Of a DNA stretch of 64,000 nucleotides, positions 11,519-32,235 are shown one piece after another. Numbering within the stretch: position 1 is the stretch's first letter; each line of letters opens with the position of its first letter. The DNA is from Acidobacteriota bacterium. GTDB taxonomy: Bacteria; Acidobacteriota; UBA890; WLXD01. The stretch spans positions 2,144,001 to 2,208,000 of the forward strand of contig CBDBHB010000009.1 in assembly GCA_965205505.1 (NCBI GenBank), in the 5' to 3' direction. Under the pieces are notes generated by a model, which saw only the letters and a program-made list of their open reading frames with translations, was not told the origin of the DNA and did no database searches. Made by a program: the position numbers and the translations under genes.

Positions 11519-11757
11519 CTGACTGGCATCCTTTGGAGATGGAGACCTCGAGGGACATCTGCGCAGGTTCAGTTGGCTCGGTCGGCCTGTCAAGGACCCT
11601 GCAACAGCCTCACGAGATTTGGTCGAGAGGTCCGGAAGACCCCGAGTCGCCCGCTTGCCGGTCAAAAGTGCAGCGGGTATTCTCTGCGATACGAAGCGCT
11701 CGGGGTTCTCCCGAGAGTCGCCTCCCCGAGCCCGCTACCCCCCCCCCGCTCTCTAGC

Positions 11758-12996: not shown

Positions 12997-13042
12997 TGCG
13001 AGCAGTGAGGCGAGCGCTGATGCACAGGAGCAGGAGGGCGCC

Positions 13043-13342
13043 GTGCTGCTGCTGACCTGTCCCAATTGCGGCCCGAGGAACGTGAGCGAGTTCCACTTCG
13101 GCAACGAGTACAATCCCCGGCCGGCGGATCCGGCCGCCGCCAGCGAAGCCGAGTGGGTCGACTACCTGCATCTGCGCAACAACAAGGTGGGGGTACAGAA
13201 GGAGTGGTGGCACCACGGCACCGGCTGCGGCCTGTGGTTCCTTGCCGAGCGACACACCAAGACGGGCGAGGTATTGCGCACCTACCTGTGGCGTCCAGAT
13301 GGCGACGCGGGTCCGGATTCTGAAACAGGGGCGAAGCCGTGA
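13043..13342 (+). CDS. soxD: Sarcosine oxidase delta-like subunit (MgdB by context)
   Basis: GTG after AGGAGG; CPNCGPR..EF and WWHHGTGC Zn motifs. Confidence 0.9.
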   Translation: MLLLTCPNCGPRNVSEFHFGNEYNPRPADPAAASEAEWVDYLHLRNNKVGVQKEWWHHGTGCGLWFLAERHTKTGEVLRTYLWRPDGDAGPDSETGAKP

Positions 13343-16239
13343 AGCGTCTGCCTGCCGGTGGCACTTCGATCGACCGATCGTCGAGCCTGGAGTTCACCTT
13401 CGACGGCAGGAAGGTGATGGCGCACCATGGCGACACGATCGGCTCGGCGCTGGCGGCGTCGGGCGTGCGGGTGATCAGCCGGTCGTTCAAGTACCACCGG
13501 CCTCGGGGTCTGCTTTGTTGCTCGGGCCACTGTCCTAACTGCCTGGTTCAGATAGGCGACGAGCCCAACGCCCGCGCCTGCATGCGGGCGGTGGAAGAGG
13601 GCATGCAGGTGCGTTCGCAGAACGCCTGGCCTTCGCTGCGGTTCGACCTCCTGTCGTTGTCGCGGTTCGCGTCGCGCTTCATGACCGCCGGTTTCTACTA
13701 CAAGACGTTCATCCGGCCGAAGTGGCTGTGGCCCTTCTACGAGCATGTGTTGCGCAACGCTGCCGGCCTCGGCGTGGTCGACCCGAAAACCCCGCGCGGC
13801 AGGTACGACAAGCGCTACCTGCACGCCGACATCGTGGTTGCCGGCGGCGGCCCGGCGGGGATCAGCGCGGCGCATGCGGCCGGTAAGAGCGGCGCGCGCG
13901 TGCTGCTGATCGACGAGAACGCTGAGCTCGGCGGCCATCTCAGGTTTGCCGGCGCGCGACCGGACTCCGAGACGGCCGCGGTCGATCGACTGCGAAGCGG
14001 GCTCGAGGGCATGGACAATGTCGAGGTGCTGACCAATACCTCGGTGCTGGGCTGGTATCGGAACGATTGGCTAGCAGCGAAATCAAGTAACCGCCTCTTC
14101 AAGATTCGCCTGGGTTCGCTGGTGGCGGCAACCGGGGCTTTCGAGCGGCCGCTGCAGTTCGAAAACAACGATTTGCCCGGGGTGATGCTGGGCGGCGCCG
14201 TTCGACGACTGCTGCACCAGTTCGGTGTGGTCGCCGGCCAGCGGGCGTTGGTCGCCACTGCCAACGACGACGGCTGGCACATCGCCGCCGATCTGCGTGC
14301 CGCGGGGGTGGAGGTGGCTGCGATCGTCGACGAGCGCCCTGCCGAGGCGTGCACGAGCCCGCACGGCGAGGCGCTGGCGGCACAAGGAGTGCCGGTCCAC
14401 TACCAGCACACGGTGGTCAAGGCGGTCGGGGGCAAGGGTGTTACTGCGGCCATCATCGCTCAGACCGCCGGCGGCGATGGCGTGGACAAGGGAACTTACA
14501 AGACGGTCGCCTGCGACCTGCTGGTGGTCAGCGTCGGCTGGACGCCGGACACTGACCTCACACATCTTGCCGGCGGCAAGACTCGCTATGACGCCGATCG
14601 CGCCGAGATGCTTCCGACCGAGCTGCCGTCTCATATTCACGTCGTCGGCCGCGCTGCCGGGACGCACGAGCTGGCGGCGGAGCTCCTGGAGGGGGCGATT
14701 GCGGGCCGGGGGGCGGCTCACCGGCTGGGAATCGGGCTGCAGCCGGACGCCGCGCAGGCGGTTGAGCTGCAGCGGCTCAAGAGCTCCGAGCCGCGGCGCA
14801 GCTCGCTGCGCGTGAGCATCCCCGGCGGTAAGCCGAAGAAGCGCTTCGTGTGCCTGTGCGAAGACGTCACGGAGGAGGACATCCTCGCGACCATCGCCGA
14901 AGGGTTCGACAGCATGCAACTGCTCAAGCGCTACAGCACCGTGTCGATGGGGCCCTGCCAGGGCAAGATGTGCTCGATGGCCGCCATCCAGATCTGCGCC
15001 CGGGCGACGGAGCGTTCGATCCCGGACACCGGCACAACGACTTCGCGACCGCCGGCGACGCCGGTTTCACTCGGCACGCTGGCCGGCCAGGAGATGGAGC
15101 CGGTTCAGCTTGGCGCGCTGCACGACTGGCATCTGGCAAACGGCGGCAAGCCGATGGTTGCGGGGGGTTGGATTCGCGCCGAGCACTATGGCGATGCCAT
15201 CGCCGAGGTCAAAGCGGTGCGGGACGCGGCGGGCCTGATCGACGTCAGCTCGCTCGGGAAGCTTCGCCTGACCGGCCCCGGCGTGCCGGACTTGCTGCAA
15301 CGCGTCTACATCAACAAGTGGAGAAAGCTGGGTGTCGGCCAAGCGCGCTACGGTGTGATGTGCAACGACGAAGGCATCGTGCTCGACGATGGTGTCTGCG
15401 CCCGCGTCGGCGAGCAGGAGTGGTACATGAGCACCACTTCCTCCGGTGCGACCGGTATGTACGACTGGATGCAGTGGTGGATCCAATCGGGCTGGGGGGA
15501 AGGTATCCACCTGACCAACGTGACCGAGGCGTTCGCGGCAATGAACCTCGCTGGTCCGCGTACGCGCGAGGTTCTTGCCGACCTTACCGATGTCGACCTG
15601 TCCAACGAGGCGTTCCCCTACATGGGGGTTCGCAGCGGCGCGGTGGCAGGAGTGCCGTGCCGGCTGCTGCGCATCGGTTTTACCGGCGAGCTGTCCTACG
15701 AGATCCACTGCCTGTCGGGCTACGCCGTACACCTTTGGGAGGCGCTGATCGCCGCAGGTCAACCACACGGCATCAAGCCGTTCGGTGTCGAGGCGCAGCG
15801 TGTATTGCGGCTCGAGAAGGGCCATATCATCGTTGGCCACGACACCGACGGGCTCACCGATCCGATCATGGCGAACATGGAATGGGCGGTGAAGCTGGAC
15901 AAGTCCGATTTCCTCGGGATGCGACACCTGAGTCGGGTCGCAGAGCATGGGCCGCATCAGCGCCTGGTCGGCTTCAAGGTCCCCGCCGGCGGCGCCAAGC
16001 CCGAGGAAGGGATGCAAATCGTGGCTGGATCCAACGGCAAGCGGGAGGTAATCGGCTGGGTCACCTCCTGCCGCTTGAGCCCGACCCTCGGAGAGATCAT
16101 CGGGTTGTGCTGGCTGCCGGCGGAGCTGGGTGATCGCGAAGCTGCCGAGTTCACCATCCACGTCGACGGCCGATCGCAGCCGGCGCGCGTTTGGCACGGC
16201 GCTTTCTACGACCCCGAGGGCAAGAGGTTGCGCAGGTGA
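13339..16239 (+). CDS. soxA: Sarcosine oxidase alpha-like subunit (MgdC by context)
   Basis: SRSFKYHRPRG, GGGPAG, CLCEDV/MGPCQG, C-terminal GcvT-like folate domain (GFTGELSYEI). Confidence 0.93.
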   Translation: MKRLPAGGTSIDRSSSLEFTFDGRKVMAHHGDTIGSALAASGVRVISRSFKYHRPRGLLCCSGHCPNCLVQIGDEPNARACMRAVEEGMQVRSQNAWPSLRFDLLSLSRFASRFMTAGFYYKTFIRPKWLWPFYEHVLRNAAGLGVVDPKTPRGRYDKRYLHADIVVAGGGPAGISAAHAAGKSGARVLLIDENAELGGHLRFAGARPDSETAAVDRLRSGLEGMDNVEVLTNTSVLGWYRNDWLAAKSSNRLFKIRLGSLVAATGAFERPLQFENNDLPGVMLGGAVRRLLHQFGVVAGQRALVATANDDGWHIAADLRAAGVEVAAIVDERPAEACTSPHGEALAAQGVPVHYQHTVVKAVGGKGVTAAIIAQTAGGDGVDKGTYKTVACDLLVVSVGWTPDTDLTHLAGGKTRYDADRAEMLPTELPSHIHVVGRAAGTHELAAELLEGAIAGRGAAHRLGIGLQPDAAQAVELQRLKSSEPRRSSLRVSIPGGKPKKRFVCLCEDVTEEDILATIAEGFDSMQLLKRYSTVSMGPCQGKMCSMAAIQICARATERSIPDTGTTTSRPPATPVSLGTLAGQEMEPVQLGALHDWHLANGGKPMVAGGWIRAEHYGDAIAEVKAVRDAAGLIDVSSLGKLRLTGPGVPDLLQRVYINKWRKLGVGQARYGVMCNDEGIVLDDGVCARVGEQEWYMSTTSSGATGMYDWMQWWIQSGWGEGIHLTNVTEAFAAMNLAGPRTREVLADLTDVDLSNEAFPYMGVRSGAVAGVPCRLLRIGFTGELSYEIHCLSGYAVHLWEALIAAGQPHGIKPFGVEAQRVLRLEKGHIIVGHDTDGLTDPIMANMEWAVKLDKSDFLGMRHLSRVAEHGPHQRLVGFKVPAGGAKPEEGMQIVAGSNGKREVIGWVTSCRLSPTLGEIIGLCWLPAELGDREAAEFTIHVDGRSQPARVWHGAFYDPEGKRLRR

Positions 16240-16952
16240 GCGCCGCGAAGCCGGCTTTACTGACGCCCTTGTACGGAGTGACCAAGGGTCTCGGGGCGCG
16301 ATTCGTGGAAACCGGCAACGGCTGGCTCATCGCAGATGCCTATGCCGAGCCGGAGTCGGAGCAGGCCGCGGCGCGCGACCGGCTGGCGATCGCGGACATC
16401 TCGGCGGATGGCAACTTGAGGATCGAGGGCGCCGATGCGGAAACCACACTGCGCGATGCCTACGGGCTGCCGGCACTCGCGATCGGCGAAAGCGCGCCCG
16501 TCGGGAACGGACGCTGTTATCGTTTGCGTGCCGACTTGTTCTCGGTCATCACCGCCCCCGGGGTTGAGGAAACGACCTTCGGCGCGATCGAGTCTGCTGC
16601 GCAATCGGCGGGTCATCGGATCACCGTGACGGTGATGACGCACGGGCAGGCCAGTGTCCGTATAATCGGCCCGCGCGTAGCGGAACTCATGAGCAAACTG
16701 TGCGGCCTGGACTTCAGCCCCGCGGCGTTTCCTGACGGGGTAGCCAAGCGCACGAGCTTCGCGAAGACGGCACAGCTTGTCGTTCGCCGTGACATTGGTC
16801 AGCTTCCCGCCTTCATGGTGGTCGGAGCGCGGTCGGTCGCGGCCTACGTTTGGGAGACGATTCTGGAGGCCGGCGAGGAGTACGGCATCACGCCGATCGG
16901 GCAAGATGCGCTGTCAAAGATCATTGCGGACAGTACTGAGAGGGGAACATGA
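16236..16952 (+). CDS. soxG: Sarcosine oxidase gamma-like subunit (MgdD by context)
   Basis: GTGA overlap with the alpha subunit; KLCGLDF and RSVAAYVWE motifs. Confidence 0.85.
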   Translation: MSAAKPALLTPLYGVTKGLGARFVETGNGWLIADAYAEPESEQAAARDRLAIADISADGNLRIEGADAETTLRDAYGLPALAIGESAPVGNGRCYRLRADLFSVITAPGVEETTFGAIESAAQSAGHRITVTVMTHGQASVRIIGPRVAELMSKLCGLDFSPAAFPDGVAKRTSFAKTAQLVVRRDIGQLPAFMVVGARSVAAYVWETILEAGEEYGITPIGQDALSKIIADSTERGT

Positions 16953-18412
16953 CCGATCTAGAAGCCTATGTTCGTGCCGACGGCCGTGACGAACTGGTCA
17001 AGGAAGTTCGTAAGCAGATCGAAGCACTCGGGATCGAGTACATCTACTACCAGTTTGTTTCGGTAACTGGCCGCATCGTTGGCAAGGGCGCTCCGGCAGA
17101 CCACTGGGAAAAGTTTGCGGAAAACGGCTTTCAGCTCGTCTACGGCTCCACCGCCAACCTGTTCACCGATCGGCACGGCAACTACATCGGCTACGGACCG
17201 GAATCATCCGAGCTCGTCGGCATCCCCGATGCGGAGACGTTCGTCCAATTGCCCTGGGAAAAGCGTATCGGGCGCGTCTTCTGCACCTGCTTCCGCAACC
17301 GCGAAGAGCCGGAGAACCCGGGGGCCTTTCTGACGTCGGACTGTCGCGGCAACCTGCGCCGCACGCAGGAGCAATTCACCGCCGATCATGGACTCGAGAT
17401 GCGCGCGGGTACCGAGCCGGAGATGATGTGGTTGAAGAAGGGTGCCGACGGTCGGCCGGACGGCGGCGTTACGCGGCCCTTCTGCTACCACATCGATCAG
17501 TTCGAAACGCTGCGTCCGGTGGTGCTGCAGGTGGTCGAGTACAGCCGTGCCATGGGTCTCGACATCATCCAGGGCGATCACGAGGACGCTCCCGGACAGC
17601 TCGAGCTCAACTTCACCTACGACGACGCGCTCCGAAATTGTGACCGGCTGACCACGTATCGACAGATCTGCGCCGAGGTCGCCAAGCAGCACAACATGAT
17701 CGCCTGCTTCATGTCGAAGCCGTTCATGGGGGTGTCGGCATCGGGGTGCCACCACAACGTCTCGTTGTGGCGCGGCGGCGAGAACGCCGTCAACAGGCTC
17801 GGCCAGGACCCGGTGCCCGGTATCGAGGAGAACTTCACGTACCGGCGGGGCGGTGAGAACGTCTTCCTCCCGGAGGCCGGGCAGCGCATCCCGTCGGAGC
17901 TCGGACTTCAATGCCTGGGCGGATTGAAAGAGCATCTGCCGGCGCTAACGGCGATCGGCTGCTCGACGGTGAACTCTTACCGTCGCCTGTGTGAGACCGG
18001 GTTCTGGGCACCGATCTTCGCCGACTGGGGCTTCCAGAACCGCACCTGCGGGCTGCGCGTTTCTTCGCCCGACCGCTTCGAGTACCGCGCCGTCGACTCG
18101 ATGGTGAACCCGTACCTCATGGCGTCGGGGATTCTGGCGGCGTTTGACGACGGCATCCGCACCAAGGCCGACCCTGGCCCGCCCGAGGAACGCAACATCT
18201 ACGATGCCATCCAGGAGGGCAAGGAGGTGGTCAAGCTGCCCTTGTCGCTCGGTGCTGCCCTGGATACGCTTGCCGCTGACGAGGTCGTGAAGTCAGCGTT
18301 GCCCGGCGATATGTACCGGGTCTTCATGCACTACAAGACCGATGAGTGGGAGCGGTTCCTCGCTCAGACCACCGAATGGGACCTCGAAAACTACCTGGAC
18401 TGCTTGCCGTAG
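16949..18412 (+). CDS. gmaS: Glutamine synthetase-like gamma-glutamylmethylamide synthetase
   Basis: GTEPE, DHEDAPGQLE, SGCHHN, QNRT, EYR glutamine-synthetase motifs; lies next to mgsABC. Confidence 0.82.
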   Translation: MTDLEAYVRADGRDELVKEVRKQIEALGIEYIYYQFVSVTGRIVGKGAPADHWEKFAENGFQLVYGSTANLFTDRHGNYIGYGPESSELVGIPDAETFVQLPWEKRIGRVFCTCFRNREEPENPGAFLTSDCRGNLRRTQEQFTADHGLEMRAGTEPEMMWLKKGADGRPDGGVTRPFCYHIDQFETLRPVVLQVVEYSRAMGLDIIQGDHEDAPGQLELNFTYDDALRNCDRLTTYRQICAEVAKQHNMIACFMSKPFMGVSASGCHHNVSLWRGGENAVNRLGQDPVPGIEENFTYRRGGENVFLPEAGQRIPSELGLQCLGGLKEHLPALTAIGCSTVNSYRRLCETGFWAPIFADWGFQNRTCGLRVSSPDRFEYRAVDSMVNPYLMASGILAAFDDGIRTKADPGPPEERNIYDAIQEGKEVVKLPLSLGAALDTLAADEVVKSALPGDMYRVFMHYKTDEWERFLAQTTEWDLENYLDCLP

Positions 18413-18436
18413 CGTATCGGCGGAGATAGCGAAACG

Positions 18437-19384
18437 ATGTGTGGAATCGCAGGAATCATTCACCGTAACAAGACCGGCAACGTGGGCGCCGAAATGACCG
18501 GCATGCTTCAGGCCATGAAGCACCGCGGCCCGGATTCGACCGGCTTCGCCTTTTACGGAGTGCCGACTGAAGGCGAACTGCTGTTGCGTTTCAAGGTGGC
18601 CGAGAGCGACGATCTCGCCTCCGGGTTCGAGATTCACGAGGCGATCAAGGAGCGTCGGGCGCAGGTGGACGAGCGCATCGAGTCGATGGGCGGCGAGATC
18701 CAGGTGGCCGAGGCATCGACTGAGTACGCCTTCCTCTATCGCCTTCGATTCGATCCCAAGCTCGATAGTCTGGTACGTCTGGCCGACTACATCGAGGACG
18801 TCGAGGGTGCCGAGGTTCTCTCGATCGGCAATGCGCTCGAGCTCGTCAAGGACCTGGGCGACGCCACCGAGGTCAGCGATCAATACGAGATGGGCAACTT
18901 CGTCGGCACTCACGCCATCGGTCACACACGAATGGCGACGGAATCGGACGTCGACATCCGCTCGGCACATCCCTACTGGGCCTATCCGGTGAGCGACGTC
19001 TGCGTGGTGCACAACGGTCAGCTCACCAACTACTGGAGCAAGCGGCGTGAGCTGGAGCGAACCGGCCACCGCTTTCTCTCCGATTGCGACTCGGAGCTGA
19101 TCGCCGTCTACGTCGCCGAGCTGACCGAACGCGGCAGGTCACTCGAAGAGGCGATGCACCAGTCGGTCGACGAGCTCGACGGGGTGTTCAGCTACCTGGT
19201 TGCTACCAGCGACGCGCTGGGGCTGGCCAAGGACACGATGGCCGCCAAGCCCATGGTCTTGTACGAAGGCGACGACTGCATCGTAATGGCATCCGAGGAG
19301 GTCGCGATCCGCACCGTTTTTCATGAGGAAATTGATACCTTCGATCCGTACGCTGGTGAGGTACTGGTGTGGAGCACCAACTAG
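18437..19384 (+). CDS. Class II glutamine amidotransferase, N-methylglutamate synthase subunit A
   Basis: MCGIAG N-terminal Cys, HTRMATES, AHP, HNGQL. Confidence 0.85.
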   Translation: MCGIAGIIHRNKTGNVGAEMTGMLQAMKHRGPDSTGFAFYGVPTEGELLLRFKVAESDDLASGFEIHEAIKERRAQVDERIESMGGEIQVAEASTEYAFLYRLRFDPKLDSLVRLADYIEDVEGAEVLSIGNALELVKDLGDATEVSDQYEMGNFVGTHAIGHTRMATESDVDIRSAHPYWAYPVSDVCVVHNGQLTNYWSKRRELERTGHRFLSDCDSELIAVYVAELTERGRSLEEAMHQSVDELDGVFSYLVATSDALGLAKDTMAAKPMVLYEGDDCIVMASEEVAIRTVFHEEIDTFDPYAGEVLVWSTN

Positions 19385-19569
19385 TGGCCTGTAAGCAGAT
19401 GATCGTTGCGTATCGTGGCCGCCATCCTCCGGACAGATGGGCAGTTGCGGGCGATATCGGCGTTGCGCCTCGTCGACGATGCCCATTGCATCGCCTTCCT
19501 CGCCGCGCCTTGATCTCACCCGCAAATCCCATCTGCGATATGCAACGATCATCTGATACAGGACACTAG
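19381..19569. mobile_element. IS630-type MITE (189 bp, non-autonomous)
   Basis: About 35-bp terminal inverted repeats CTAGTGGCCTGTAAGCAGATGATCGTTGCGTATCG / CGATATGCAACGATCATCTGATACAGGACACTAG, CTAG at both ends; ends match the IS630 at 54453-55637. Confidence 0.8.
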
Positions 19570-19571
19570 CG

Positions 19572-20408
19572 ATGGCAAAGCAATCGATAAGTGAACCGAT
19601 CGACGTGCACGCGGAACCGCTGAAAGGCCGTTCCCACAAGACCTTCTTTCGGGCCGAGGAGGGGGAGAATCTCGTCTATCCGGACAGTATCGAGGTCGAC
19701 TTCGATCGCTCCGCCGAATTCGATGCCGCCGAGATGGATACCAGTGCGATCAACGTGCGCATCCGCGAGCTCATCGGCGAGGGGCATGGCCACATCATCG
19801 TCCGCAACCCTGGGGCCAAGCACTCCCTCGGGGTCGGAATCCTCAACCGGCTGAAGCTGGAGTTCGATGGCTCGCTCGGCTACTTCGGGATCGGCTTGAA
19901 CGATGGCCCGAACGTACGAATCCGGGGTCGGGTCGGCTGGTCGTGTGGCGAAAACATGATGGCAGGCACCATCGTGGTGGAGAAGAACGCGGGGTCGTCG
20001 TTCGGCGCCGCCATCCGTGGAGGTGATCTCGTCTGCCACGGCGATGTCGGAGCGCGAACCGGGATCAATCAGAAGGGCGGAACGATCATCGTCGGTGGAC
20101 GCACCGGAATGTTGTCCGGGTTCATGATGCAGCGCGGGCGCATGATCGTGCTCGGCGACGCCGGCGATAGCCTCGGCGACTCGATGTACGACGGAACCAT
20201 TTACGTTGGTGGTGAGATCGCGTCGCTCGGCATCGACGCGGTACCCGGCGAGATGACCGATCACGAGGCGGCCTTCTTGCAGCGCAAGCTCGACCTCTAC
20301 GGTCTGGAGGCGCCCAACGGAGTGGAGAAGCTGCAGAAGATCGTCGCAGGCAAACAGCTGTGGAACTACGACAACCTCGAACCCACTGAAAAGAAGATCG
20401 TGCTGTGA
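19572..20408 (+). CDS. GXGXG (GltB/FwdC-like) protein, N-methylglutamate synthase subunit B
   Basis: Repeated beta-helix motifs GENMMAG, GINQKGG, GDSMYDG. Confidence 0.85.
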   Translation: MAKQSISEPIDVHAEPLKGRSHKTFFRAEEGENLVYPDSIEVDFDRSAEFDAAEMDTSAINVRIRELIGEGHGHIIVRNPGAKHSLGVGILNRLKLEFDGSLGYFGIGLNDGPNVRIRGRVGWSCGENMMAGTIVVEKNAGSSFGAAIRGGDLVCHGDVGARTGINQKGGTIIVGGRTGMLSGFMMQRGRMIVLGDAGDSLGDSMYDGTIYVGGEIASLGIDAVPGEMTDHEAAFLQRKLDLYGLEAPNGVEKLQKIVAGKQLWNYDNLEPTEKKIVL

Positions 20409-21748
20409 CCGACAACGGCAAGCGTAACAAGGACATTCTGGGGCAGAACTTCGTGTTCAAGCCCAGCGTCATCGATGACATCCACATCAAGTCGGATCTG
20501 GGCCGTTACCGCATGCGCGGTATGGCGCTGTTCAAGAAGATCCCGACCTGGGACGACCTCACCTTTCTGCCCGGCACGCTCACTCGCTTCGTCATCGAGG
20601 GCTACCGCGAGAAGTGCCTCACGGAGACGGTGATCGGCCCCAAAGCGAAGCGTCCGCTGGTGATGGACATCCCGATCTACATCACCGGGATGAGCTTCGG
20701 CGCGCTGTCCTACGAGGCGAAGGTGGCGCTGGCGCGCGGTGCCACGATGGCCGGAACGGCTACATGCTCGGGAGAGGGCGGCATGCTGCCCGACGAGCGC
20801 CGCTACTCATCGAAGTGGCTCTACCAGTGCATCCAGTCGCGCTACGGATTCAACCCGCACCACTTGCGCCTTGCCGATGCCTGCGAGTTCTTCATCGGAC
20901 AGGGCTGCAAGGTGGGTCTCGGCGGCCACCTTATGGGGCAGAAGGTCACCGATCAGGTGGCGGAGATGCGCAACCTGCCGGCGGGCATCGACCAGCGCTC
21001 GCCAGCACGGCACCCGGATTGGCTGGGACCGGATGACCTGGCGTTGAAGATCGACGAGATCCGCGAGGCCACCAACGGCGAGATCCCTATTCAGTTGAAG
21101 CTCGGATCGGCGCGTGTCTATGACGACGTTCGCATGGCCGCCAAGACGGGCCCGGACAGCATCTACCTTGACGGTATGGAAGGCGCCACCGGCGCCGGGC
21201 CCCATCTGGCCACCGAGGAGACCGGCGTTCCGGGGATCGCTGCGATCCGGCAGGCACGGCACGCGCTCGACGACGTCGGCAAGACGGGCGAGATATCGCT
21301 GGTCTACGCTGGAGGCATCCGCAATGGGGCCGATGTGGCCAAAGCGCTGGCGCTGGGTGCCGACGCCATTGCGATCGGTACGGCGGCGATGGTGGCGCTC
21401 AACTGCAACCGCGACATCCCCGAAGCAGACTTCGAGGGAACGATCGGCGTGCCGGCGGGCTACTGCTACCACTGCCACACCGGTTTGTGCCCCGTGGGTG
21501 TCGCCACTCAGGATCCCGAGCTGCGCAAGCGCTTGGATCCCGACGAAGCGGCGATTCGCGTGTTCAACTTCCTCCACACGCTGGCCATCGAATGTCAGAT
21601 GATGGCGCGCGCCTGCGGCAAGACCAACGTCCACTCACTGGAGCCGGAAGACCTGGCGGCGCTGACCTCCGAGGCCTCGGCCATGGCGGAGGTGCCCATT
21701 GCGGGCACTCGCTACACCGTCGGCCACCCTGAAATGACCCGATTCTGA
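20405..21748 (+). CDS. FMN-binding glutamate synthase-family protein, N-methylglutamate synthase subunit C
   Basis: GMSFGALS, SGEGG, GQGCKVGLGG, CYHCHTGLCPVG. Confidence 0.9.
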   Translation: MTDNGKRNKDILGQNFVFKPSVIDDIHIKSDLGRYRMRGMALFKKIPTWDDLTFLPGTLTRFVIEGYREKCLTETVIGPKAKRPLVMDIPIYITGMSFGALSYEAKVALARGATMAGTATCSGEGGMLPDERRYSSKWLYQCIQSRYGFNPHHLRLADACEFFIGQGCKVGLGGHLMGQKVTDQVAEMRNLPAGIDQRSPARHPDWLGPDDLALKIDEIREATNGEIPIQLKLGSARVYDDVRMAAKTGPDSIYLDGMEGATGAGPHLATEETGVPGIAAIRQARHALDDVGKTGEISLVYAGGIRNGADVAKALALGADAIAIGTAAMVALNCNRDIPEADFEGTIGVPAGYCYHCHTGLCPVGVATQDPELRKRLDPDEAAIRVFNFLHTLAIECQMMARACGKTNVHSLEPEDLAALTSEASAMAEVPIAGTRYTVGHPEMTRF

Positions 21749-21769
21749 TCGAACACAGCGAGAGACAAC

Positions 21770-22186
21770 GTGAGCGACGAAGCCCCAAAGAACGGCGAGT
21801 CCCAAGCGGAGGACGTCGACTACTACCTCAAATCGAGCGGGCTGGATACCGACCGTGAGCTCGAGATCGGTCAGCACATCGGCTACCGGTACGACGTCAA
21901 CCTGGTGCCGGACTACTCGCTGATGACCCCGCTGCTCAAGAGGTACATCGAACACATGGGCTGGCCGGACCTCAACTGGATGGAAGATGTTCACATGGGC
22001 TACGAGGAAGGTCGTTCGGCCGTCTTCGACCGCAACATCAACGGCTGGGTGGCAGTCCCGGAAGATATGGAGCTGCCCGACTCGCAGCAGGAACGCGACA
22101 TGGTGGCGCGCGAGCTGCTGCTGAAATTCCAAATGTCACCGCAGCACCCGCTCTACGACCTGGGAGAGCGGCACAAGAAGTTTTGA
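21770..22186 (+). CDS. Hypothetical acidic protein inside the methylamine operon
   Basis: Clean 138-codon ORF with GC-rich third positions, between mgsC and the flavoprotein; no recognised family. Confidence 0.85.
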   Translation: MSDEAPKNGESQAEDVDYYLKSSGLDTDRELEIGQHIGYRYDVNLVPDYSLMTPLLKRYIEHMGWPDLNWMEDVHMGYEEGRSAVFDRNINGWVAVPEDMELPDSQQERDMVARELLLKFQMSPQHPLYDLGERHKKF

Positions 22187-22256
22187 GGCGTTCTTCTCTC
22201 CAGCGGGGTCGCGACGCGGCCCATATCGATCGACGAGGGTCGATCGCGAGGCCGAC

Positions 22257-23654
22257 GTGAGCGAAACCAAGAAGTGGGGCGCCGACGAGTTCTGGGGGCT
22301 TTCCTATGACTGGGATCCGCAATGGATCCTCACCGCGGAGCAGCAGGAGCTTCAGGCGTCGCTGATCGATCTCTGCCAGAGCACGATGCGTGAGAACGCC
22401 GTGGCGAGCGATCGCGACCTGATCTTTCCGCGCAAGAACTTCGAGGCCCTCGCATCCCTCGGCCTTCTCGGCCTGATAGTGCCGAAGGAGCTTGGCGGGC
22501 GCGGCGAGAGCCATACTTGCATGGCCATGGTGGTCGAGACCATCGCCCGGTATGGATGCGCCAGCACGGCGATGTGCTACACGATGCACGTCAGCGCCGT
22601 CGCCGCGGCGATGCTCCGGGCACACGGTAACGAGACCATTCAGAGCCTGATGCCGCGTCTCGACGACGAGGTCCTGATCGGCACCCTGTCGTACTCGGAT
22701 CCCGAGACGGGCTCGCACTTTTGGTACCCGTTCTCCTCCAGCGCGGAGCGTGTCGAGGGCGGCTGGAAGGTCAACAAGAAGTCATCGTGGACTACTTCAG
22801 GGGGGTTCGCCGACTGGTACGTCATACAGACCACCAGCCCGGACTTCGACGGCGACTACTCGGACCTGTCGGTTTTCCTGATCATGGCCGACGAGATCAG
22901 TGCCGATCCTTCGACCTGGGACGGGCTTGGACTGCGCGGCAACCAGTCGGGGCCGCTGCTGGTGGAGGATAGGACGATTCCCGAGGGTCGCCTTATCGGC
23001 CCGACCGGCGACGGCGCGAGCTCTAATGACGAGGCCGTCGATCCCTTCTTTCTGGCGTGCTCATCGTCCTGCTGGAACGGCATATCGATGGGTCTGATCG
23101 ATATTGCGAAGGGGCATACGACCAAGAAGAAGCACGTCGACGTGGGCATGAGGGTCTGCGATTACCCGACCATTCAGGATTACATTGGCGAGGCCGTGAT
23201 CGATACCAACACGTCGCGCGCGTTCGTCTACCAGTTGACCGCGGCGATAGACAAGAAGACCAACGACTGCGACTGGTCGATCCACGAGGACGTCGCCGTG
23301 CTGCCTCGGTCGACCGTGCTGCACTGGATGTGGCAAGTGAAGTTCACCGCCGCCAAGAACGTCGCCAAGGTTGCCGACAAGATGCTCCACGCTTGTGGCG
23401 GAACCGGCTACAAGCCGGGCCTGGGCATCGAGCGTTACCTTCGCGACGGCAAGGCTGGTTGGGTGATGGGCCCGACCAACGAGGTACTGCGGCAGTTTGT
23501 CGGCAAGGCGGTGTTGTTGGGGTTCGATTCGCTCGACTACTGGAACCAGTCGGTCAACGAGCGCGTGCTCCACAACGAGATCAAGAAGATGGACGCTGCG
23601 GCCAAGAGCGTGCTGGCGCAGAAGCTGCTCGCGGAGGCCGAGGAATCGCAGTGA
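22257..23654 (+). CDS. Acyl-CoA dehydrogenase-fold flavoprotein, non-canonical active site
   Basis: GLIVPKELGG, SYSDPETGS, KSSWTTSG, GLRGNQSG, IERYLRDGK; VMGPT where IYEGT is usual. Confidence 0.88.
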   Translation: MSETKKWGADEFWGLSYDWDPQWILTAEQQELQASLIDLCQSTMRENAVASDRDLIFPRKNFEALASLGLLGLIVPKELGGRGESHTCMAMVVETIARYGCASTAMCYTMHVSAVAAAMLRAHGNETIQSLMPRLDDEVLIGTLSYSDPETGSHFWYPFSSSAERVEGGWKVNKKSSWTTSGGFADWYVIQTTSPDFDGDYSDLSVFLIMADEISADPSTWDGLGLRGNQSGPLLVEDRTIPEGRLIGPTGDGASSNDEAVDPFFLACSSSCWNGISMGLIDIAKGHTTKKKHVDVGMRVCDYPTIQDYIGEAVIDTNTSRAFVYQLTAAIDKKTNDCDWSIHEDVAVLPRSTVLHWMWQVKFTAAKNVAKVADKMLHACGGTGYKPGLGIERYLRDGKAGWVMGPTNEVLRQFVGKAVLLGFDSLDYWNQSVNERVLHNEIKKMDAAAKSVLAQKLLAEAEESQ

Positions 23655-25996
23655 TCCTGTCGCAGCTCGAGGGGCCGCGCTGGGTCGCGGGAGGCCTGCT
23701 CCCCGAGGCGCCCGGCAGGGAGCGATATCGAGTCGCAGGCGGTGGTGCCACCGTCGTCGCGCTGGCGGCCGGTGACCGCATCGACATCACCGACGTCGAG
23801 GGCGGGCAGCGCTGCGAGCTGGCGGTCTTCTCTCCAACCGGCGGCGAGGACAGCGCCGCTCTCAATGTCGCAGCCGACAGCCAGCTGGGCGTACTGGGAA
23901 TTGCGCAAGCTGAGCGGCAAGCCGATACGGACGCCGCGGTCGCCGCTTTGCTGGCGCGTGGTATCGATCCACGTGGCGCGCCGGCACTGCAGCTGTTCCG
24001 CGGCGATGGGCCTCCGGGAGCGGCGGAGTCGTTCACGGCGGAGCGCGACGTCATCTGCATTGTTGGAGCCCCGGGTGGTCCGATGCGCGTCGATGCGCAG
24101 GATCCGCCGACCGACCTGCGGGTGATGGTTCAGCGAGCCCGGGTGACCGAGACCCCAGAGGTACCGCTGCCAACACCACTTGGCGATATGCGTCTCGACA
24201 TGCGCGTCGAGCGCGCCGCTGCATGCGCCTACGAGGTGAAGGCCGGCGAGTACATCCAGGTTATCGACGTGGCCGGACGGCAATGCTCGGATTTTCTCGC
24301 GTTTCGTTCCGGCGCCTTGCAAAACGGGGTGGAGAAAGGTCTCGACGCCACGGCTACTCGAACGCTCATGGGCTCAGCTTATCCGGCACCCGGCCTATAC
24401 TCGAAATTCTATGATCACGACCTGCAGCCGCTTGTCGAGGTCGTGCGCGATACGGTCGGACGCCACGACACCTTCGGGCTGGCATGCACGGCGAAGTACT
24501 ACGAGGACATGGGCTACTTTGGCCACGCCAATTGCTCTGACAACTTCAGCGCCGCCTTGGATCCCTACAGCATCGCATCGCGGCGAGGTTGGCCGGCGAT
24601 CAACTTCTTCTACAATACGCGCATCGACGACAACAACGTCCTGTACCTCGACGAGCCGTGGTCGCGGCCGGGCGACTACGTGTTGCTACGGGCGCTGGAC
24701 GATCTCGTCTGCTTGACCTCGGCTTGTCCCGACGACATCGATGCTGCCAATGCATGGAATCCAACTGAGGTGCATGTCCGTGTGTATCCGGCCAAGAGCT
24801 CTTTTTCGATGGGGATCGCACACCGGATGATTCCTGACGCCGAGCCCAAGCTGACGCGCGAGACCGGGTTCCACCCGCGTACCTCGGCGTTGACTCGGAA
24901 GTTCACCGAATATGGCGGCTACTGGCTGCCGACGGAATTCACCGGCTACGGCGCCATCAAGGAATACTACGCCTGCCGCGAGGGCGCGGTGGTGCTGGAT
25001 CTGTCGGCCCTTCGCAAGTTCGAGGTTCTCGGCCCCGGTGCCGAAGCACTGATGCAGGCCACGCTCACCCGCAATGTGCGCCGCGTAGCCGTCGGTCAGG
25101 TGTCATATACGTCGATGTGCAATGAGACCGGCGGGCTGCTGGACGACGGCACGTTGTTCCGCCTCGGCGCCGACAACTTTCGTTGGATCGGCGGCAACGC
25201 GACGGACGGCATCTGGCTGCGTGAACAGGCCGAGAAACAGCGGCTCAAAGTGTGGGTCAAGTCGTCGTCGGAACAGCTTCACAACATCGCCGTACAGGGC
25301 CCGAGTAGCCGAGATATCCTTCGAGAGGTTGTCTGGACCGCGCCCACCCAGCCGAGCATCGACGAGCTCAAGTGGTTCCGCTTTACCGTCGGCCGCGTAG
25401 CGGCGGCAGACGGCACGCCGCTGCTGGTATCCCGAACCGGTTACACGGGCGAGCTCGGCTATGAGGTCTGGTGCCACCCCGACGATGCCGTTGCCGTTTG
25501 GGATGCGATCTGGGAGGCGGGCGAGCCGCACGATCTGGCGCCGCTAGGCCTGGATGCTCTCGACATCTTGCGCATCGAGTCGGGGCTGATCTTCCCAGGG
25601 TACGAGTACGACGACCAGGTGGATCCGTTCGAAGCAGGCATCGGGTTCACCGTCGACCTCGAGAGCACGGACGACGATTTCGTTGGCCGGGCAGCCCTCG
25701 TCGAGCGCAAAGCGCACCCGCAGCGACTGTTGGTCGGCCTGGAGCTCGAAGGCAGCGAGACCGGTGGTCACGGCGACGGCGTGTACGCCGGTCGCAGTCA
25801 GGTGGGAGTGATCACCAGCGGCACGCGCTCTCCCATCCTGCGAAAGAACATCGCCCTGTGCCGGTTGGCCAAGGAGCACGCCGACCCTGGCACGGAGCTG
25901 GAAGTCGGTAAGCTCGACGGGCATCAGAAGCGCATTGCGGCGACCGTGGTGCAGTTCCCGTTCTATGACCCCGGCAAGAAACGTCCTCGTAGCTAA
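23651..25996 (+). CDS. tdm: Trimethylamine N-oxide demethylase (DUF1989 + GcvT domains)
   Basis: GTG start overlapping the upstream stop; GRQCSDF, HDTFGLAC..YYEDMGYFGHANCSDN..SACPDDID three-Cys site; SRTGYTGELGYE aminomethyltransferase domain. Confidence 0.88.
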   Translation: MILSQLEGPRWVAGGLLPEAPGRERYRVAGGGATVVALAAGDRIDITDVEGGQRCELAVFSPTGGEDSAALNVAADSQLGVLGIAQAERQADTDAAVAALLARGIDPRGAPALQLFRGDGPPGAAESFTAERDVICIVGAPGGPMRVDAQDPPTDLRVMVQRARVTETPEVPLPTPLGDMRLDMRVERAAACAYEVKAGEYIQVIDVAGRQCSDFLAFRSGALQNGVEKGLDATATRTLMGSAYPAPGLYSKFYDHDLQPLVEVVRDTVGRHDTFGLACTAKYYEDMGYFGHANCSDNFSAALDPYSIASRRGWPAINFFYNTRIDDNNVLYLDEPWSRPGDYVLLRALDDLVCLTSACPDDIDAANAWNPTEVHVRVYPAKSSFSMGIAHRMIPDAEPKLTRETGFHPRTSALTRKFTEYGGYWLPTEFTGYGAIKEYYACREGAVVLDLSALRKFEVLGPGAEALMQATLTRNVRRVAVGQVSYTSMCNETGGLLDDGTLFRLGADNFRWIGGNATDGIWLREQAEKQRLKVWVKSSSEQLHNIAVQGPSSRDILREVVWTAPTQPSIDELKWFRFTVGRVAAADGTPLLVSRTGYTGELGYEVWCHPDDAVAVWDAIWEAGEPHDLAPLGLDALDILRIESGLIFPGYEYDDQVDPFEAGIGFTVDLESTDDDFVGRAALVERKAHPQRLLVGLELEGSETGGHGDGVYAGRSQVGVITSGTRSPILRKNIALCRLAKEHADPGTELEVGKLDGHQKRIAATVVQFPFYDPGKKRPRS

Positions 25997-26005
25997 GGGT
26001 TTTCG

Positions 26006-27346
26006 ATGAGTTCTTTACCGGAAGCAAGCAAGTACGTCGTCATCGGTGCGGGTATTCACGGCCTGAGCACCGCCTATCATCTGGCGCTTGAGCTGAAAGC
26101 ACGGGGGCAGGGAAGTGGGGCCGACATTATCGTCCTCGACAAGGAAGGCGTCGGCGTCGGAGCGTCGGGGATTGCCTGCGGCGTAATCCGCAATAACTAT
26201 TTTCAGCCGGCAATGCGCGAGCTAATGGCGCACAGCGTCGAGGTATGGGACAGCGACCCGGAAGCGTATAGCTATCATCCGGTTGGCTACATGCAGATCA
26301 GCCCGGCCGTGATGGAGGCCGATGTCGCGCAGATCTACGAGCAGCAGAAGGCGATCGGCTACGAATCCGAGCTCATTGTCGGAGCGGCCGAGTCCGAGAA
26401 ATACATGAAGGGACTGTTCCACGACTGGAGAGCTCGCGGAATCACCTCCGTCTTGCACGAGAAGAAGGGTGGTTACGCCAACAACATGGCGTCGATGCTC
26501 GGGCTTGCCGGCAAGGCGGAAGGCGTCGGGGTGACGATCCACTCCGGGGTGAAGGTTGCCGGCTTCCAGCACACCGATGCCGGAATCACCGCCGTGGAGA
26601 CCGACCAGGGGACGATCCGCACCGATTACGTCGTCGTGGGTGTGGGCCCGTGGGTGAAGCACATCTGGGACATGCTCGAGCTGCCCAAGACCATCACCGT
26701 CAACGACAACGGCACGGTGCACGAGAACATCCCAATGTGGCGTTACTGGTGCCTGCAAGAGGGCACGCTCGGCGTCGAGCCTGATCTGCAGCGGACAAAC
26801 GACGGCGAGTTGCCCCCGGTGGTGCACATCGACACCGACGCGCCGCTCTACTCCGACCTCGATGGCTCGCTGATTACCGACCAGATATGGGGCATCTACT
26901 ACAAACCGGACTTCAACTTCGGCGGCGTCCAAGGTGGCGCCATGCCCTACAAGGTCGACAAGGATGCCGATGATGTGGCAGTCGATCCATACGGACCCAA
27001 GTCGCCCGACTTCATCGTCGGCGAGGATTTCGCCAACATGTGGTGCTCGGCGCTGGCGTTTTGTCAGGAGCGCTTCGTTGGCAAGTCCGGTCTGTTCCGT
27101 GGCGAGGAGCCGTCAGGCGGCATCGGCTCGTTCACGGCAGACAGCTTCCCGGTATTCGACGTCTTCCGCGGCAACTGCTACTTCGTCGCCGACTCCAACC
27201 ACGGCTACAAGATGCTCGGTGTCGGCAAGCTCGTGGCGGAGGAGATCGTCGGCAATCGGAGCGCGTTGCTCGAACCGTTTCGCTTCTCCCGCTATGCCGC
27301 GGGGAAGTTGCACCCGGTGTCCAACAGCCCGTACCCCTGGAGCTAA
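26006..27346 (+). CDS. DAO-family FAD-dependent oxidoreductase (SoxB-like paralog)
   Basis: IGAGIHGLS, GASGIACGVIRNNY, DSNHGYK. Confidence 0.88.
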   Translation: MSSLPEASKYVVIGAGIHGLSTAYHLALELKARGQGSGADIIVLDKEGVGVGASGIACGVIRNNYFQPAMRELMAHSVEVWDSDPEAYSYHPVGYMQISPAVMEADVAQIYEQQKAIGYESELIVGAAESEKYMKGLFHDWRARGITSVLHEKKGGYANNMASMLGLAGKAEGVGVTIHSGVKVAGFQHTDAGITAVETDQGTIRTDYVVVGVGPWVKHIWDMLELPKTITVNDNGTVHENIPMWRYWCLQEGTLGVEPDLQRTNDGELPPVVHIDTDAPLYSDLDGSLITDQIWGIYYKPDFNFGGVQGGAMPYKVDKDADDVAVDPYGPKSPDFIVGEDFANMWCSALAFCQERFVGKSGLFRGEEPSGGIGSFTADSFPVFDVFRGNCYFVADSNHGYKMLGVGKLVAEEIVGNRSALLEPFRFSRYAAGKLHPVSNSPYPWS

Positions 27347-27451
27347 TGCTACGCCCCACAAATAGTGGTACGCAGCACTGGTCACTAGGCTGATCGGGGC
27401 CTGACGACACGCCGAACACCACGACCGTCTGACGCAGGACACCGAGGAGCC

Positions 27452-27762
27452 ATGGAAAACGAGTTCACCGCCCTTACCGTCATCTTCACGGAGTTCTACT
27501 ACTGGGTTTGTATCGTCCTGATGTTCCTCATCCACGTCGGCTTCTGCCTGTACGAGGTCGGAGTATCGCGAAAGAAGAACATGATGCACACCCTGATGAA
27601 GAATGCGATGGTGATCCCGTTGATCACCGTGACGTTCTTCTTCTTCGGATGGTGGATCTACTTCGCGCTGCAGAACGGACCGGGCATTACCGGCGGCTTG
27701 ATCTCCGCTCCGTTCGCGGTCCCATGGAGCGAGCTCATGGGCACCCACATGGGCGGCCAACC
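27452..27762 (+). pseudogene. amt: Ammonium/methylammonium transporter (Amt) 5' fragment cut by IS3
   Basis: LMFLIHVGFCLYEVGVSRKKN..LMKN..FFFFGW; reading frame runs into the IS end at 27763 and the 3' part is not on the other side. Confidence 0.85.
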
Positions 27763-29022
27763 TGACCTGACCCCACGGTTAGTACCACGTCTTATCTCAG
27801 TAACTCGGTGCTGACAAGGGGTTGTTGAGGCCGGCGAAGCGGAGCGTAGCCGGCTTCAACAACAGCGCCTCCGGGGCCGGTGGTCGGTAGCCCAACGAGC
27901 TGTGCGGTCGCATGCGGTTGTACTGCTGCCTCCATCTCTCGATCAGAACCTTTGCCTCCTTGAGCGTGTAGAAGATCTCGCCGTTGAGCAGCTCGTCTCG
28001 GAGCTTGCCGTTGAAGCTCTCCACGTAGCCGTTCTCCCACGGCGAGCCCGGCTCGATGAACAGCGTGCCCACACCGAGCCTACCGAGCCAGTCGCGAACC
28101 GCCTCGGCGGTGAACTCCGGTCCGTTATCGGACCGGATGTGCTCAGGTATGCCCCGGTGCACGAACAACCACCCGAGCCGCTCGAGCACGTCCTCACAGT
28201 TGAGCTTCCGTGCCACGTCGATCGCCAGGCTTTCTCGTGTGTACTCATCGACGATCGTCAGCAGCCTCATAGCCCGACCCTCGTGCGTCCGGTGATGAAC
28301 GAAGTCATACGCCCAGACGTGATCTTTGCGCTGTGGTCGCAGCCGGATGCACGAGCCATCGCTGAGCCACAGCCGGGCTCGTTTGGGCTGCTTTGTCGGT
28401 ACTTTCAGCCCCTCACGCCTCCAGATACGCTGCACTCGTTTGTGGTTCACCCACCAGCCCTCCATACGCAACAACGCCGTCACTCGCCGATACCCGTAGC
28501 GCCCGTATTGTCGGGCTAGATCCACGATCCGCTCCGTCAACATCTGCTCATCGCCCGGTTCTCTTGGCATGTACCTGTGTGTCGTGCGTGGTTGTTTCAG
28601 TACCCGGCACGCCCGCCTCTCGGAGACGCCCAGCCGCCCCTGTACATGCGCCACCGCCTCGCGCCGTCGAGCTGGGCTCAGAAGTTTCCCTCCGCGACTT
28701 CCTTCAGGATCGACAGGTCGAGCTCTTTCTCCGCCACCAGTTTCTTGAGCCGGGCGTTTTCTTTCTCCAGCTGCTTGAGCCTTCTGGCCTGGTTGACCTT
28801 CAGCCCCCCGTACTCCCGCCGCCACCGATAGTAGGTGTGCTCGGTGATCGCTAGCTTGCGGCAGGCATCCTTGACCGTCCCGCCTTGCGCCAGCTCCACT
28901 TCAGCCTCCCGGAGCTTGCGTACGATCTGCTCGGCGCTGTGCCTCTTCGTCGGCATTCTGACCTCCCCTTTTCGACCCAGATCGTGAGATTACCTCTGGA
29001 TCCGTTTTGGGGGGTCAGGTCA
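27763..29022 (-). mobile_element. IS3 family (IS407-like) element; orfA 28678-28956, orfB about 27797-28681
   Basis: Ends TGACCTGACCCC / GGGGTCAGGTCA; GGGAAAC frameshift window; WAYDF, SDNGPEF and ESFNG DDE motifs; no target duplication. Confidence 0.95.
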
Positions 29023-29195
29023 GGCCTAGTTTGGTGCCGGCGTGAACCAACATCCACGGTCCCTGACACAATCTTGACGAATGCCAGACCCTAATCTGAC
29101 ACGAGAGGCGTAGTCTCTCAGTTTGAGGAGTGGACTCAAAGATCGGCGTGGCTGGCACTAGAAGCGTTATGCCACGTGTCTCCGGAGTTGCCGGC

Positions 29196-32195: not shown

Positions 32196-32235
32196 TAGGT
32201 GCCGAAGAAGCTCGCTCTCTAGAGAAGTCTCTCCG

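Follow-up and report, generated by a model that had tools for sequence, protein, structure and literature searches.

Gene organization of the methylated-amine operon

The DNA analysed here is a 64,000-nt stretch (the window) of contig CBDBHB010000009.1 from the Acidobacteriota bacterium assembly GCA_965205505.1, and the feature under study occupies positions 21770-27346. The genes of this feature all lie on the + strand, preceded by an mgsC-like gene (20405-21748) and followed by an amt gene. They encode an orphan protein of 138 aa (orf138), a protein with the acyl-CoA dehydrogenase (ACAD) fold, the trimethylamine N-oxide (TMAO) demethylase Tdm, and a flavoprotein of the DAO family (DAO446). 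This layout, first described from the letters alone (the sequence-only reading), agreed with the ORFs and with the Pfam and NCBIfam matches. The feature is the distal half of a single + strand operon for methylated amines (11473-27814), in which the genes overlap or are tightly spaced (Table 1). The overall best explanation of this operon, with a probability of roughly 0.5, is that the ACAD-fold protein would stand in for Tmm, which oxidizes trimethylamine (TMA), and that a module of six genes would stand in for DmmABC, which acts on dimethylamine (DMA).

The TGA stop of the ACAD gene and the GTG start of tdm overlap as GTGA (23651-23654). The tdm product scored above the curated cut-off of its NCBIfam model (1100 bits), matched Pfam DUF1989, GCV_T and GCV_T_C, and by family score is a genuine TMAO demethylase. 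In the proximal half, A', B' and C' correspond to the three pieces of glutamate synthase recognized by Pfam, namely the class-II amidotransferase, GXGXG and FMN domains. The SoxB-like gene that opens the operon probably has its true start downstream of the TTG.

The nearest relatives of the locus are in Acidobacteriota metagenome-assembled genomes (MAGs), and one of them (locus L010) retains the entire gene order with 84-96% protein identity (71% for the gamma subunit). DAO446 showed 67-90% identity in 8 relatives. Since orf138, the ACAD-fold protein and DAO446 are conserved across relatives, these genes are real. In consensus scans, promoter-like and terminator-like sites were not in excess of those in shuffled sequences, a result neither for nor against a single operon.

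Table 1 Coordinates of the operon genes and of the adjoining insertion sequence in the window
Feature	Position	Strand	Evidence
SoxB-like beta subunit, heterotetrameric sarcosine-oxidase family (probable N-methylglutamate dehydrogenase)	11473..12996	+	Pfam DAO 240 bits, residues 127-473
SoxD-like delta subunit	12974..13342	+	Pfam SoxD 101 bits
SoxA-like alpha subunit (GCV_T folate domain)	13339..16239	+	TIGR01372 917 bits (below cut-off 1164); Pfam GCV_T, Fer2_4, SO_alpha_A3
SoxG-like gamma subunit	16191..16952	+	Pfam SoxG/GCV_T
GS', ligase of the glutamine synthetase (GS) fold, paralogue of canonical GmaS	16949..18412	+	TIGR03105 297 bits (cut-off 469.6)
A', MgsA-like class-II amidotransferase	18437..19384	+	Pfam GATase_7/6
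B', MgsB-like GXGXG protein	19572..20408	+	Pfam GXGXG
C', MgsC-like FMN glutamate-synthase-domain protein, type 1	20405..21748	+	Pfam Glu_synthase 303 bits
orf138, orphan 138-aa protein	21770..22186	+	No Pfam or NCBIfam match; strong conservation
ACAD-fold protein, predicted oxygenase of a two-component flavin monooxygenase	22257..23654	+	Pfam Acyl-CoA_dh_N/M/1; linkage to tdm and flavin reductase
tdm, trimethylamine N-oxide demethylase, GTG start	23651..25996	+	NF053776 1210 bits; DUF1989 and GCV_T
DAO446, divergent SoxB/dimethylglycine oxidase-type FAD amine dehydrogenase/oxidase, insert of ~140 residues	26006..27346	+	Pfam DAO, residues 10-224
Amt-family transporter gene, interrupted 5' part	27452..27814	+	Pfam Ammonium_transp, profile positions 4-75 only
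Insertion sequence in amt; rve-family transposase at 27797-28825	27762..29023	-	Pfam rve/rve_3/HTH_21

Canonical upper-pathway genes in the genome

The accepted aerobic route leads from TMA to TMAO (Tmm), to DMA (Tdm) and to monomethylamine (MMA; DmmABC), which then enters the GmaS/Mgs/Mgd pathway. The sequence-only reading had noted that tmm and dmmABC are missing from the cluster and had proposed a search for them elsewhere. The whole assembly (9 contigs, 5.98 Mb, 96.3% complete) was searched, and neither was found. For Tmm, there were 0 matches to the FMO-like family PF00743 and 0 to NF058570 (cut-off 675 bits). For DmmC and DmmA, there were 0 matches to PF11927 and NF041259, respectively, and both models detected the Xanthobacter genes used as positive controls. 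The assembly also has no TMAO permease above cut-off and no TMADH-type gene; its sole long PF00724 (OYE-type) protein, of 657 aa on contig C9, scored higher on 2,4-dienoyl-CoA reductase (265 bits) than on TMADH (188 bits). This FadH/OYE-type Fe-S flavoprotein adjoins a betaine-aldehyde dehydrogenase (locus L115, C9:3125444-3129454), with a canonical copy of GmaS some 9 kb away, and the locus may be a DgcA-like demethylation cluster of the choline/betaine type.

The ACAD-fold protein

The ACAD-fold protein matched PF02771 with 65 bits and PF00441 with 40 bits, and PF02770 with 28.5 bits, which is below the cut-off of 33.3. Among solved structures, the best match was a true acyl-CoA dehydrogenase (1ws9, 96 bits), with 3m9v and 4kcf at 54 bits, and all NCBIfam matches were far under their cut-offs (Rv1679 family, 211 vs 600 bits; SfnB, HsaA, the HpaH oxygenase and DszC were weak). 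That its best PDB and NCBIfam matches are true ACADs is what would be expected if the gene encoded an ordinary acyl-CoA dehydrogenase placed next to tdm by chance, a view that can hardly be correct in light of the active site and the neighbourhood. The catalytic base of ACADs is either the Glu376-type residue of MCAD in 'YEGT' or the Glu254-type residue of IVD. Alignment with solved ACADs showed that the position of the catalytic Glu in the 'YEGT/GEGT' motif is Gly405 in 'VMGPTNE', and that the IVD-type Glu position is Phe; both positions have thus lost the Glu, and the replacement motif is conserved. Each residue of 'GWVMGPtNE' around Gly405 except Thr407 was identical in at least 98% of 120 homologues, as were 215 of the 465 positions overall, and the protein is about 75% identical across phyla. 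The operon contains no fatty-acid genes.

Searching contigs from one genome per species gave 348 confirmed stretches with ACAD relatives, and the neighbourhoods of the best 80 of the 348 were compared. These 80 loci came from Acidobacteriota, Latescibacterota, Gemmatimonadota, Alphaproteobacteria, Verrucomicrobiota (Udaeobacter) and Obscuribacterales. Of these loci, 54 contained tdm. Among the 43 whose contigs extended 5 kb or more to each side, 38 had tdm, and in 25 it was within 1 kb. A flavin reductase was present in 52 of the 80 and in 31 of the same 43, two of the matches being only 31-32% identical; the reductase genes were mostly less than 400 bp from the ACAD gene or directly 3' of tdm, and their PF01613 assignment was confirmed (150 bits). 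The copy in Xanthobacter flavus scores on HpaC/HsaB/StyB-type reductase models. The linkage to both genes recurs across phyla, and this, like the neighbourhoods of the other unassigned genes described below, bears out the expectation that homologues would be tied to methylated-amine genes.

Linkage of the ACAD gene to tdm and a reductase gene, together with the lost catalytic Glu, is the pattern that marks a flavin monooxygenase of the two-component type (group D). The ACAD-fold protein is, on this sequence evidence, very probably the oxygenase of such a system, acting in methylated-amine catabolism. With the known group D ACAD-fold monooxygenases (DszC, HsaA, C2-HpaH and SfnB) it shares ACAD domains without the catalytic base and, in its relatives, an adjacent PF01613 reductase gene; it differs in scoring far under their cut-offs, in being nearer to true ACADs, and in forming a compact family tied to tdm. 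Two members of group D, KijD3 and isobutylamine N-hydroxylase, are ACAD-fold amine N-oxygenases.

Several other features were seen around the ACAD relatives. In six loci (L013, L016, L036, L041, L059 and L086), a gene for a Peripla_BP_6-type periplasmic binding protein of an ABC importer adjoins the ACAD gene divergently, and this protein may import the substrate. One alphaproteobacterial genome has a second ACAD-fold paralogue, 62% identical, located away from tdm (G036:C17:24936-26321). Five neighbouring families (f11, f28, f29, f45 and f46) were set aside; they have no Pfam match and may be shadow ORFs from crude ORF calling.

Probable reaction of the ACAD-fold enzyme

Co-occurrence was studied in 401 Alphaproteobacteria, 33 of which held tdm at E <= 1e-150 (26 of the 33 were above the curated cut-off, and all 33 were counted). 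Tmm was missing from 18 of these 33, and a strong DmmC match from 25. The ACAD-fold protein was found in 9 and Tmm above cut-off in 15, with one further broken Tmm fragment. None of the 9 ACAD-holders had Tmm, compared with 15 of the 24 others (Fisher p = 0.0014, or 0.0029 without genome G023). Because the ACAD-fold protein never occurred with Tmm among these tdm-holders, the oxidation of TMA to TMAO is its likeliest reaction; TMA is nevertheless rated at even odds as the substrate, judged from gene distribution. In a wider set of 40 ACAD-holding genomes from several phyla, 37 had no Tmm and 37 had no DmmC.

Xanthobacter flavus provides a compact example. Its operon carries, on one strand, the genes for the ACAD-fold protein, a flavin reductase, tdm, a TMAO permease (NF053774, 849 bits), DmmA, a DmmB-like reductase and DmmC, and no Tmm was detected in its genome with NF058570. 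If the ACAD pair is assumed to oxidize TMA, this operon has one enzyme for each step from TMA to MMA.

The likeness to Tmm (NF058570), a class B single-component enzyme of the FMO type, would be one of function: TMA and O2 would be converted to TMAO via a flavin hydroperoxide, the gene lies beside tdm, and the two distributions among tdm-holders are complementary. Tmm has the two-Rossmann FMO fold, whereas the ACAD-fold protein has an unrelated fold, no sequence similarity, and a need for a separate reductase, and it is predicted to be an analogue, not a family member.

Alternatively, the ACAD-fold monooxygenase could act on DMA in place of DmmABC, by N-hydroxylation followed by formaldehyde release by Tdm or another enzyme or by direct demethylation, or could act on both TMA and DMA, alternating with Tdm in an iterative cycle of N-oxygenation and demethylation. 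The scarcity of DmmC among the 40 ACAD-holders is in line with this, the tight coupling of the ACAD gene to tdm fits a product-substrate relation either way, and the three genomes in which Tmm and the ACAD gene share a cluster would point to complementary rather than redundant roles. However, exclusion between the ACAD-fold protein and DmmC was absent among the 33 tdm-holders (DmmC in 2/9 ACAD-holders vs 6/24 others, p = 1), that with Tmm was complete, and the Xanthobacter operon contains the ACAD gene together with DmmABC. In addition, many Dmm-less tdm-holders (e.g. G381, G076, G253 and G428) have the six-gene module without the ACAD gene; since the gene is absent there, the ACAD-fold protein is not what these genomes use for DMA. 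Action on DMA, alone or along with TMA, is accordingly regarded as rather improbable.

Several observations weigh against assigning TMA oxidation to the ACAD-fold enzyme. Three genomes, G014 (Virgifigura deserti), G018 (a Proteobacteria MAG) and G031 (a Dongiaceae MAG), named in the order listed with loci L034, L047 and L045, hold Tmm above cut-off as well as the ACAD gene. If their contigs are those of loci L034, L047 and L045, Tmm lies beside the ACAD gene or within about 12 kb of it, an arrangement that a pure replacement would not lead one to expect. Neither Tmm nor the ACAD-fold protein is present in nine of the 33 tdm-holders, and the lack of a TMA oxygenase thus need not be filled at all. 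The Xanthobacter operon could be a TMAO-only operon, since it includes the permease. No PF01613 reductase gene is present in the operon of the window, and the sole homologue in the genome (51% identical) is on contig C1 among unrelated genes; it would have to serve the ACAD-fold oxygenase in trans. As to the sample, the centre genome G023 had been picked for holding the ACAD gene, and the Fisher tests ignore shared ancestry and include many MAGs with completeness uncontrolled. In two of the three genomes with both Tmm and the ACAD gene, the stretch also contains tdm.

The six-gene module

The genes DAO446, GS', A', B', C' and orf138 form a conserved six-gene module that is paralogous to GmaS-MgsABC. 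The upstream genes had been taken for canonical gmaS and mgsABC in the sequence-only reading, an assignment that failed. GS' scored 181 bits on the solved GmaS structures 7cql and 9qur, and its score on the GmaS model TIGR03105 was well below the cut-off (Table 1). Canonical GmaS copies are located elsewhere in this genome, at C9:3136433-3137749 and C2:4534-5850, and GS' is 30% identical to them. Locus L010 likewise has a second GS-like gene downstream, the product of which scored 659 bits on 9qur ('glutamate--methylamine ligase'). The mgsC-like genes fell into two classes, defined by our own comparison since no curated model is available: the type in the window, 77-96% identical to C', and the canonical gmaS-adjacent type, 51-58% identical to it. 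C' did not come out as an orthologue of the canonical gmaS-adjacent mgsC.

Among 71 genomes, type-1 C' and orf138 were present in the identical 58, and DAO446 orthologues in 50. Wherever it was found in related loci, orf138 followed a C'-type gene, and 62 columns were invariant in 17 sequences from several phyla. No meaningful match to orf138 was obtained in Pfam, NCBIfam, PDB (phmmer) or the ESM Atlas. With its predicted model (pLDDT 66, pTM 0.60), Foldseek returned no PDB hit at E <= 0.001, and the top Z from VIA-align, run against 48,161 chains, was 2.8. When 1.84 billion representatives were searched with a profile, 297 matches came back, mostly fragments and none above 317 aa, with no informative fusion among them. 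In eight loci from Latescibacterota and Gemmatimonadota (L014, L015, L019, L023, L024, L029, L033 and L035), C' and orf138 were observed with the ACAD gene, tdm, the reductase, amt, formate-tetrahydrofolate ligase and GmaS, and GS', A', B' and DAO446 did not turn up in a span of about 8 kb upstream and 10 kb downstream. Because the pair is kept in these eight loci with the other four genes missing from that span, C'-orf138 is the tightest link of the module. An Fe-S Cys motif (CxxC...C) proved unsuitable for telling the module apart, since it also occurs in the canonical-type mgsC of G428 and is lost only in Xanthobacter. The motif 'NCN...CYHCHTGxCPVG' of the C-type protein was seen in the module type and in the canonical copy of G428, and is absent from the canonical Xanthobacter copy.

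DAO446 can be placed no more narrowly than in the DAO superfamily (Pfam DAO, 112 bits; TIGR01373 for soxB, 61 bits vs a cut-off of 529). Profile matches were to 1y56_B (proline dehydrogenase beta, 78 bits), SoxB and dimethylglycine oxidase, and covered residues 2-231 and 371-429 only. With dimethylglycine oxidase 1pj5, SoxB 2gag_B and the P. horikoshii proline dehydrogenase beta 1y56_B, all of which oxidize the C-N bond of N-alkyl amino acids, it has the FAD-binding and C-terminal fold parts in common; only about 290 of its 446 residues align, however, with an insert at about 231-370 and no folate (GCV_T) domain. The gene adjoins a GS-like gene or tdm, and in most loci is placed with GS'.

The sequence-only reading had suggested that the ACAD gene, orf138 and the DAO446 gene supply the missing steps or channel an unrecognised N-methylated substrate into the pathway. 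The ACAD-fold protein stood as a good candidate for the Tmm step, but the three genes do not form a single unit, orf138 going with C' and DAO446 with GS' or tdm. Both orf138 and DAO446 also occur in genomes with canonical Tmm (e.g. G381, G076, G253 and G428, G381 having a tmm-tdm pair) and are for this reason not Tmm replacements. A candidate for replacing Dmm was, as had been expected, found within the locus; it is the whole module and not orf138 and DAO446 alone.

Compared with the N-methylglutamate pathway (GmaS, MgsABC and MgdABCD of Methyloversatilis, Methylocella and Ruegeria), the module has the same folds in the same order with a SoxBDAG-like dehydrogenase upstream, and differs in that GS' and C' are divergent, orf138 and DAO446 are added, and a canonical set usually coexists. 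A canonical-type mgsC beside canonical gmaS was present in at least 12 of the 58 genomes (G023, G076, G104, G124, G133, G145, G381, G383, G392, G413, G428 and G430). The 1.3-Mb alphaproteobacterial genome G428 has tdm, DAO446, GS', A', B', C', orf138, amt and canonical mgsABC-gmaS, arranged in this sequence.

The module and the dimethylamine step

Strong DmmC matches were found in only one of the 58 module-holders (G392), compared with 9 of the 13 non-holders (Fisher p = 9e-8). Within the 33 tdm-holders, DmmC was present in 1 of 23 module-holders vs 7 of 10 others (p = 0.0002). In the 401-genome sample, orf138 occurred in 34 genomes (23 with tdm) and canonical GmaS in 64 (23 with tdm), and all 23 genomes with tdm and canonical GmaS had either the module (18) or DmmC without the module (5). 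Canonical GmaS is present as well in 26 of the 34 orf138-holders; the module thus adds to the methylamine genes and does not simply substitute for GmaS. An alternative DMA route is expected to track tdm and to complement Dmm, and the module is therefore the best candidate for the missing DMA step; that it handles DMA is, from these co-occurrence patterns, slightly favoured. The haem-dependent oxidative N-demethylase DmmDABC (PF11927, NF041259) performs the step missing here, DMA to MMA and formaldehyde, and its distribution is complementary to that of the module; it has no homology to any gene in the window.

A simpler view holds that the module is merely a second type of methylamine (N-methylglutamate) pathway, with no DMA step, one formaldehyde per TMAO, and DMA excreted. 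In its favour, the module is the only N-methylglutamate-synthase-like enzyme of this genome, in which no canonical MgsABC was found, it lies directly 3' of the SoxBDAG-like genes, and 11 of the 34 orf138-holders lack tdm. A bottleneck at DMA has also been published: in PMC5520151, dmmDABC is defined, reported absent from SAR11, and a DMA bottleneck proposed. On the other hand, two full sets of enzymes for one substrate would be unexpected in the orf138-holders that have canonical GmaS, often with canonical mgsC adjoining, and a plain MMA pathway does not predict the near-exclusion with DmmC. Moreover, PMC8918994 reports that strain HTCC1062, which has no dmm, grows with TMAO as nitrogen source, suggests 'an isoenzyme of DmmDABC', and leaves open the use of TMAO nitrogen by Dmm-less bacteria such as SAR11. 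A module confined to methylamine is thus considered unlikely.

DAO446 alone might also be a flavin-dependent DMA dehydrogenase or oxidase, releasing methylamine and formaldehyde, with the remaining module assimilating the methylamine. It is kin of enzymes oxidizing N-methyl secondary and tertiary amines, its gene is directly 3' of tdm here and in G428, and among the 33 tdm-holders it was rarer with DmmC (2/8 vs 16/25). An uncharacterized 'general amine oxidase' expressed by N-limited SAR11 is mentioned in PMC5520151; it need not be DAO446. The exclusion between DAO446 and DmmC is weak (p = 0.10), however, whereas that of orf138/C' is strong; in genome G104 the module lies next to tdm but lacks DAO446; and the DAO446 gene is mostly placed with GS', not tdm. 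We regard this possibility as quite improbable.

The assignment of DMA to the whole module has its own difficulties. G392 holds both the module and DmmC, G104 manages without DAO446, and tdm is missing from 11 of the 34 orf138-holders. As canonical MgsABC was not detected in this genome, the module may here also, or only, handle methylamine. We know of no GS-like or GltS-like enzymes that ligate or transfer a secondary amine. For the ACAD-fold enzyme and the module alike, we infer all functions from gene context and co-occurrence, which counts against the explanation as a whole.

Downstream region and second copy

The amt gene is broken after about 104-120 codons by a 1262-bp insertion sequence (IS) at 27762. 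Contigs from four runs across the IS site end at 27762 and 29023/29024, and some continue into unlike sequence; the genome has a second copy on contig C2. At least 10 copies of the IS, 99-100% identical, are spread across contigs C4, C8 and C9, pointing to recent activity of the element. The second copy (locus L110, C2:4534-13200) contains a DAO446 gene (100% identical) and an intact 463-aa Amt, then a histidine kinase and canonical GmaS. It begins exactly at the DAO446 gene, and the DNA upstream differs. C2:1926-7950 and C9:3133825-3139862 showed 97.9% identity. A duplication, or an assembly variant that lacks the IS, may account for this copy. Downstream of the IS, genes for a MauG-like di-haem cytochrome c peroxidase (31906-33267) and a collagen triple-helix-repeat protein (33506-34396) were seen, with no visible relation to the operon.

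Proposed pathway and implications

In the proposed pathway, the ACAD-fold oxygenase would take reduced flavin from a PF01613 reductase and N-oxygenate TMA to TMAO via C4a-hydroperoxyflavin, standing in for the unrelated FMO-type Tmm. TMAO would then pass to Tdm, whose gene is translationally coupled to the ACAD gene, and the module would carry the product DMA onward in place of DmmABC. GS' would ligate DMA to glutamate, forming gamma-glutamyl-DMA, and A'B'C', probably joined by orf138 as fourth subunit, would transfer it to give N,N-dimethylglutamate. DAO446 would strip one methyl group, as dimethylglycine oxidase does, leaving N-methylglutamate, and the SoxBDAG-like enzyme would remove the last one to yield glutamate. 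The exact intermediates of the module route are tentative and unlikely to be right in full. Equally doubtful is the strongest form of the proposal, namely that the operon is a complete route from TMA to glutamate nitrogen without Tmm and DmmABC, in which DMA is never released as methylamine, and that the module is the DMA step of SAR11-type and soil bacteria. The ACAD-fold enzyme and the module are probably new functional variants from known enzyme families.

As to published work, the R. pomeroyi cluster is given in PMC13390433, and the subject of PMC13352529 is dimethylsulfide, not amines. The literature search returned no description of an ACAD-type TMA monooxygenase, of a gamma-glutamyl-DMA/N,N-dimethylglutamate route, or of an alternative Dmm. 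Methylated amines account for a sizeable share of the organic nitrogen in the sea and in soils, and climate-active aerosols form from them. Many tdm-carrying genomes are without the Tmm and DmmABC steps, and this locus and its relatives name cloneable candidates for both. If the assignments are true, surveys of TMA and DMA turnover that use tmm and dmm as marker genes need revision; in the strongest form of the proposal, the module would be the DMA step of SAR11-type and many soil bacteria, by which the proposed marine 'DMA bottleneck' would be removed.

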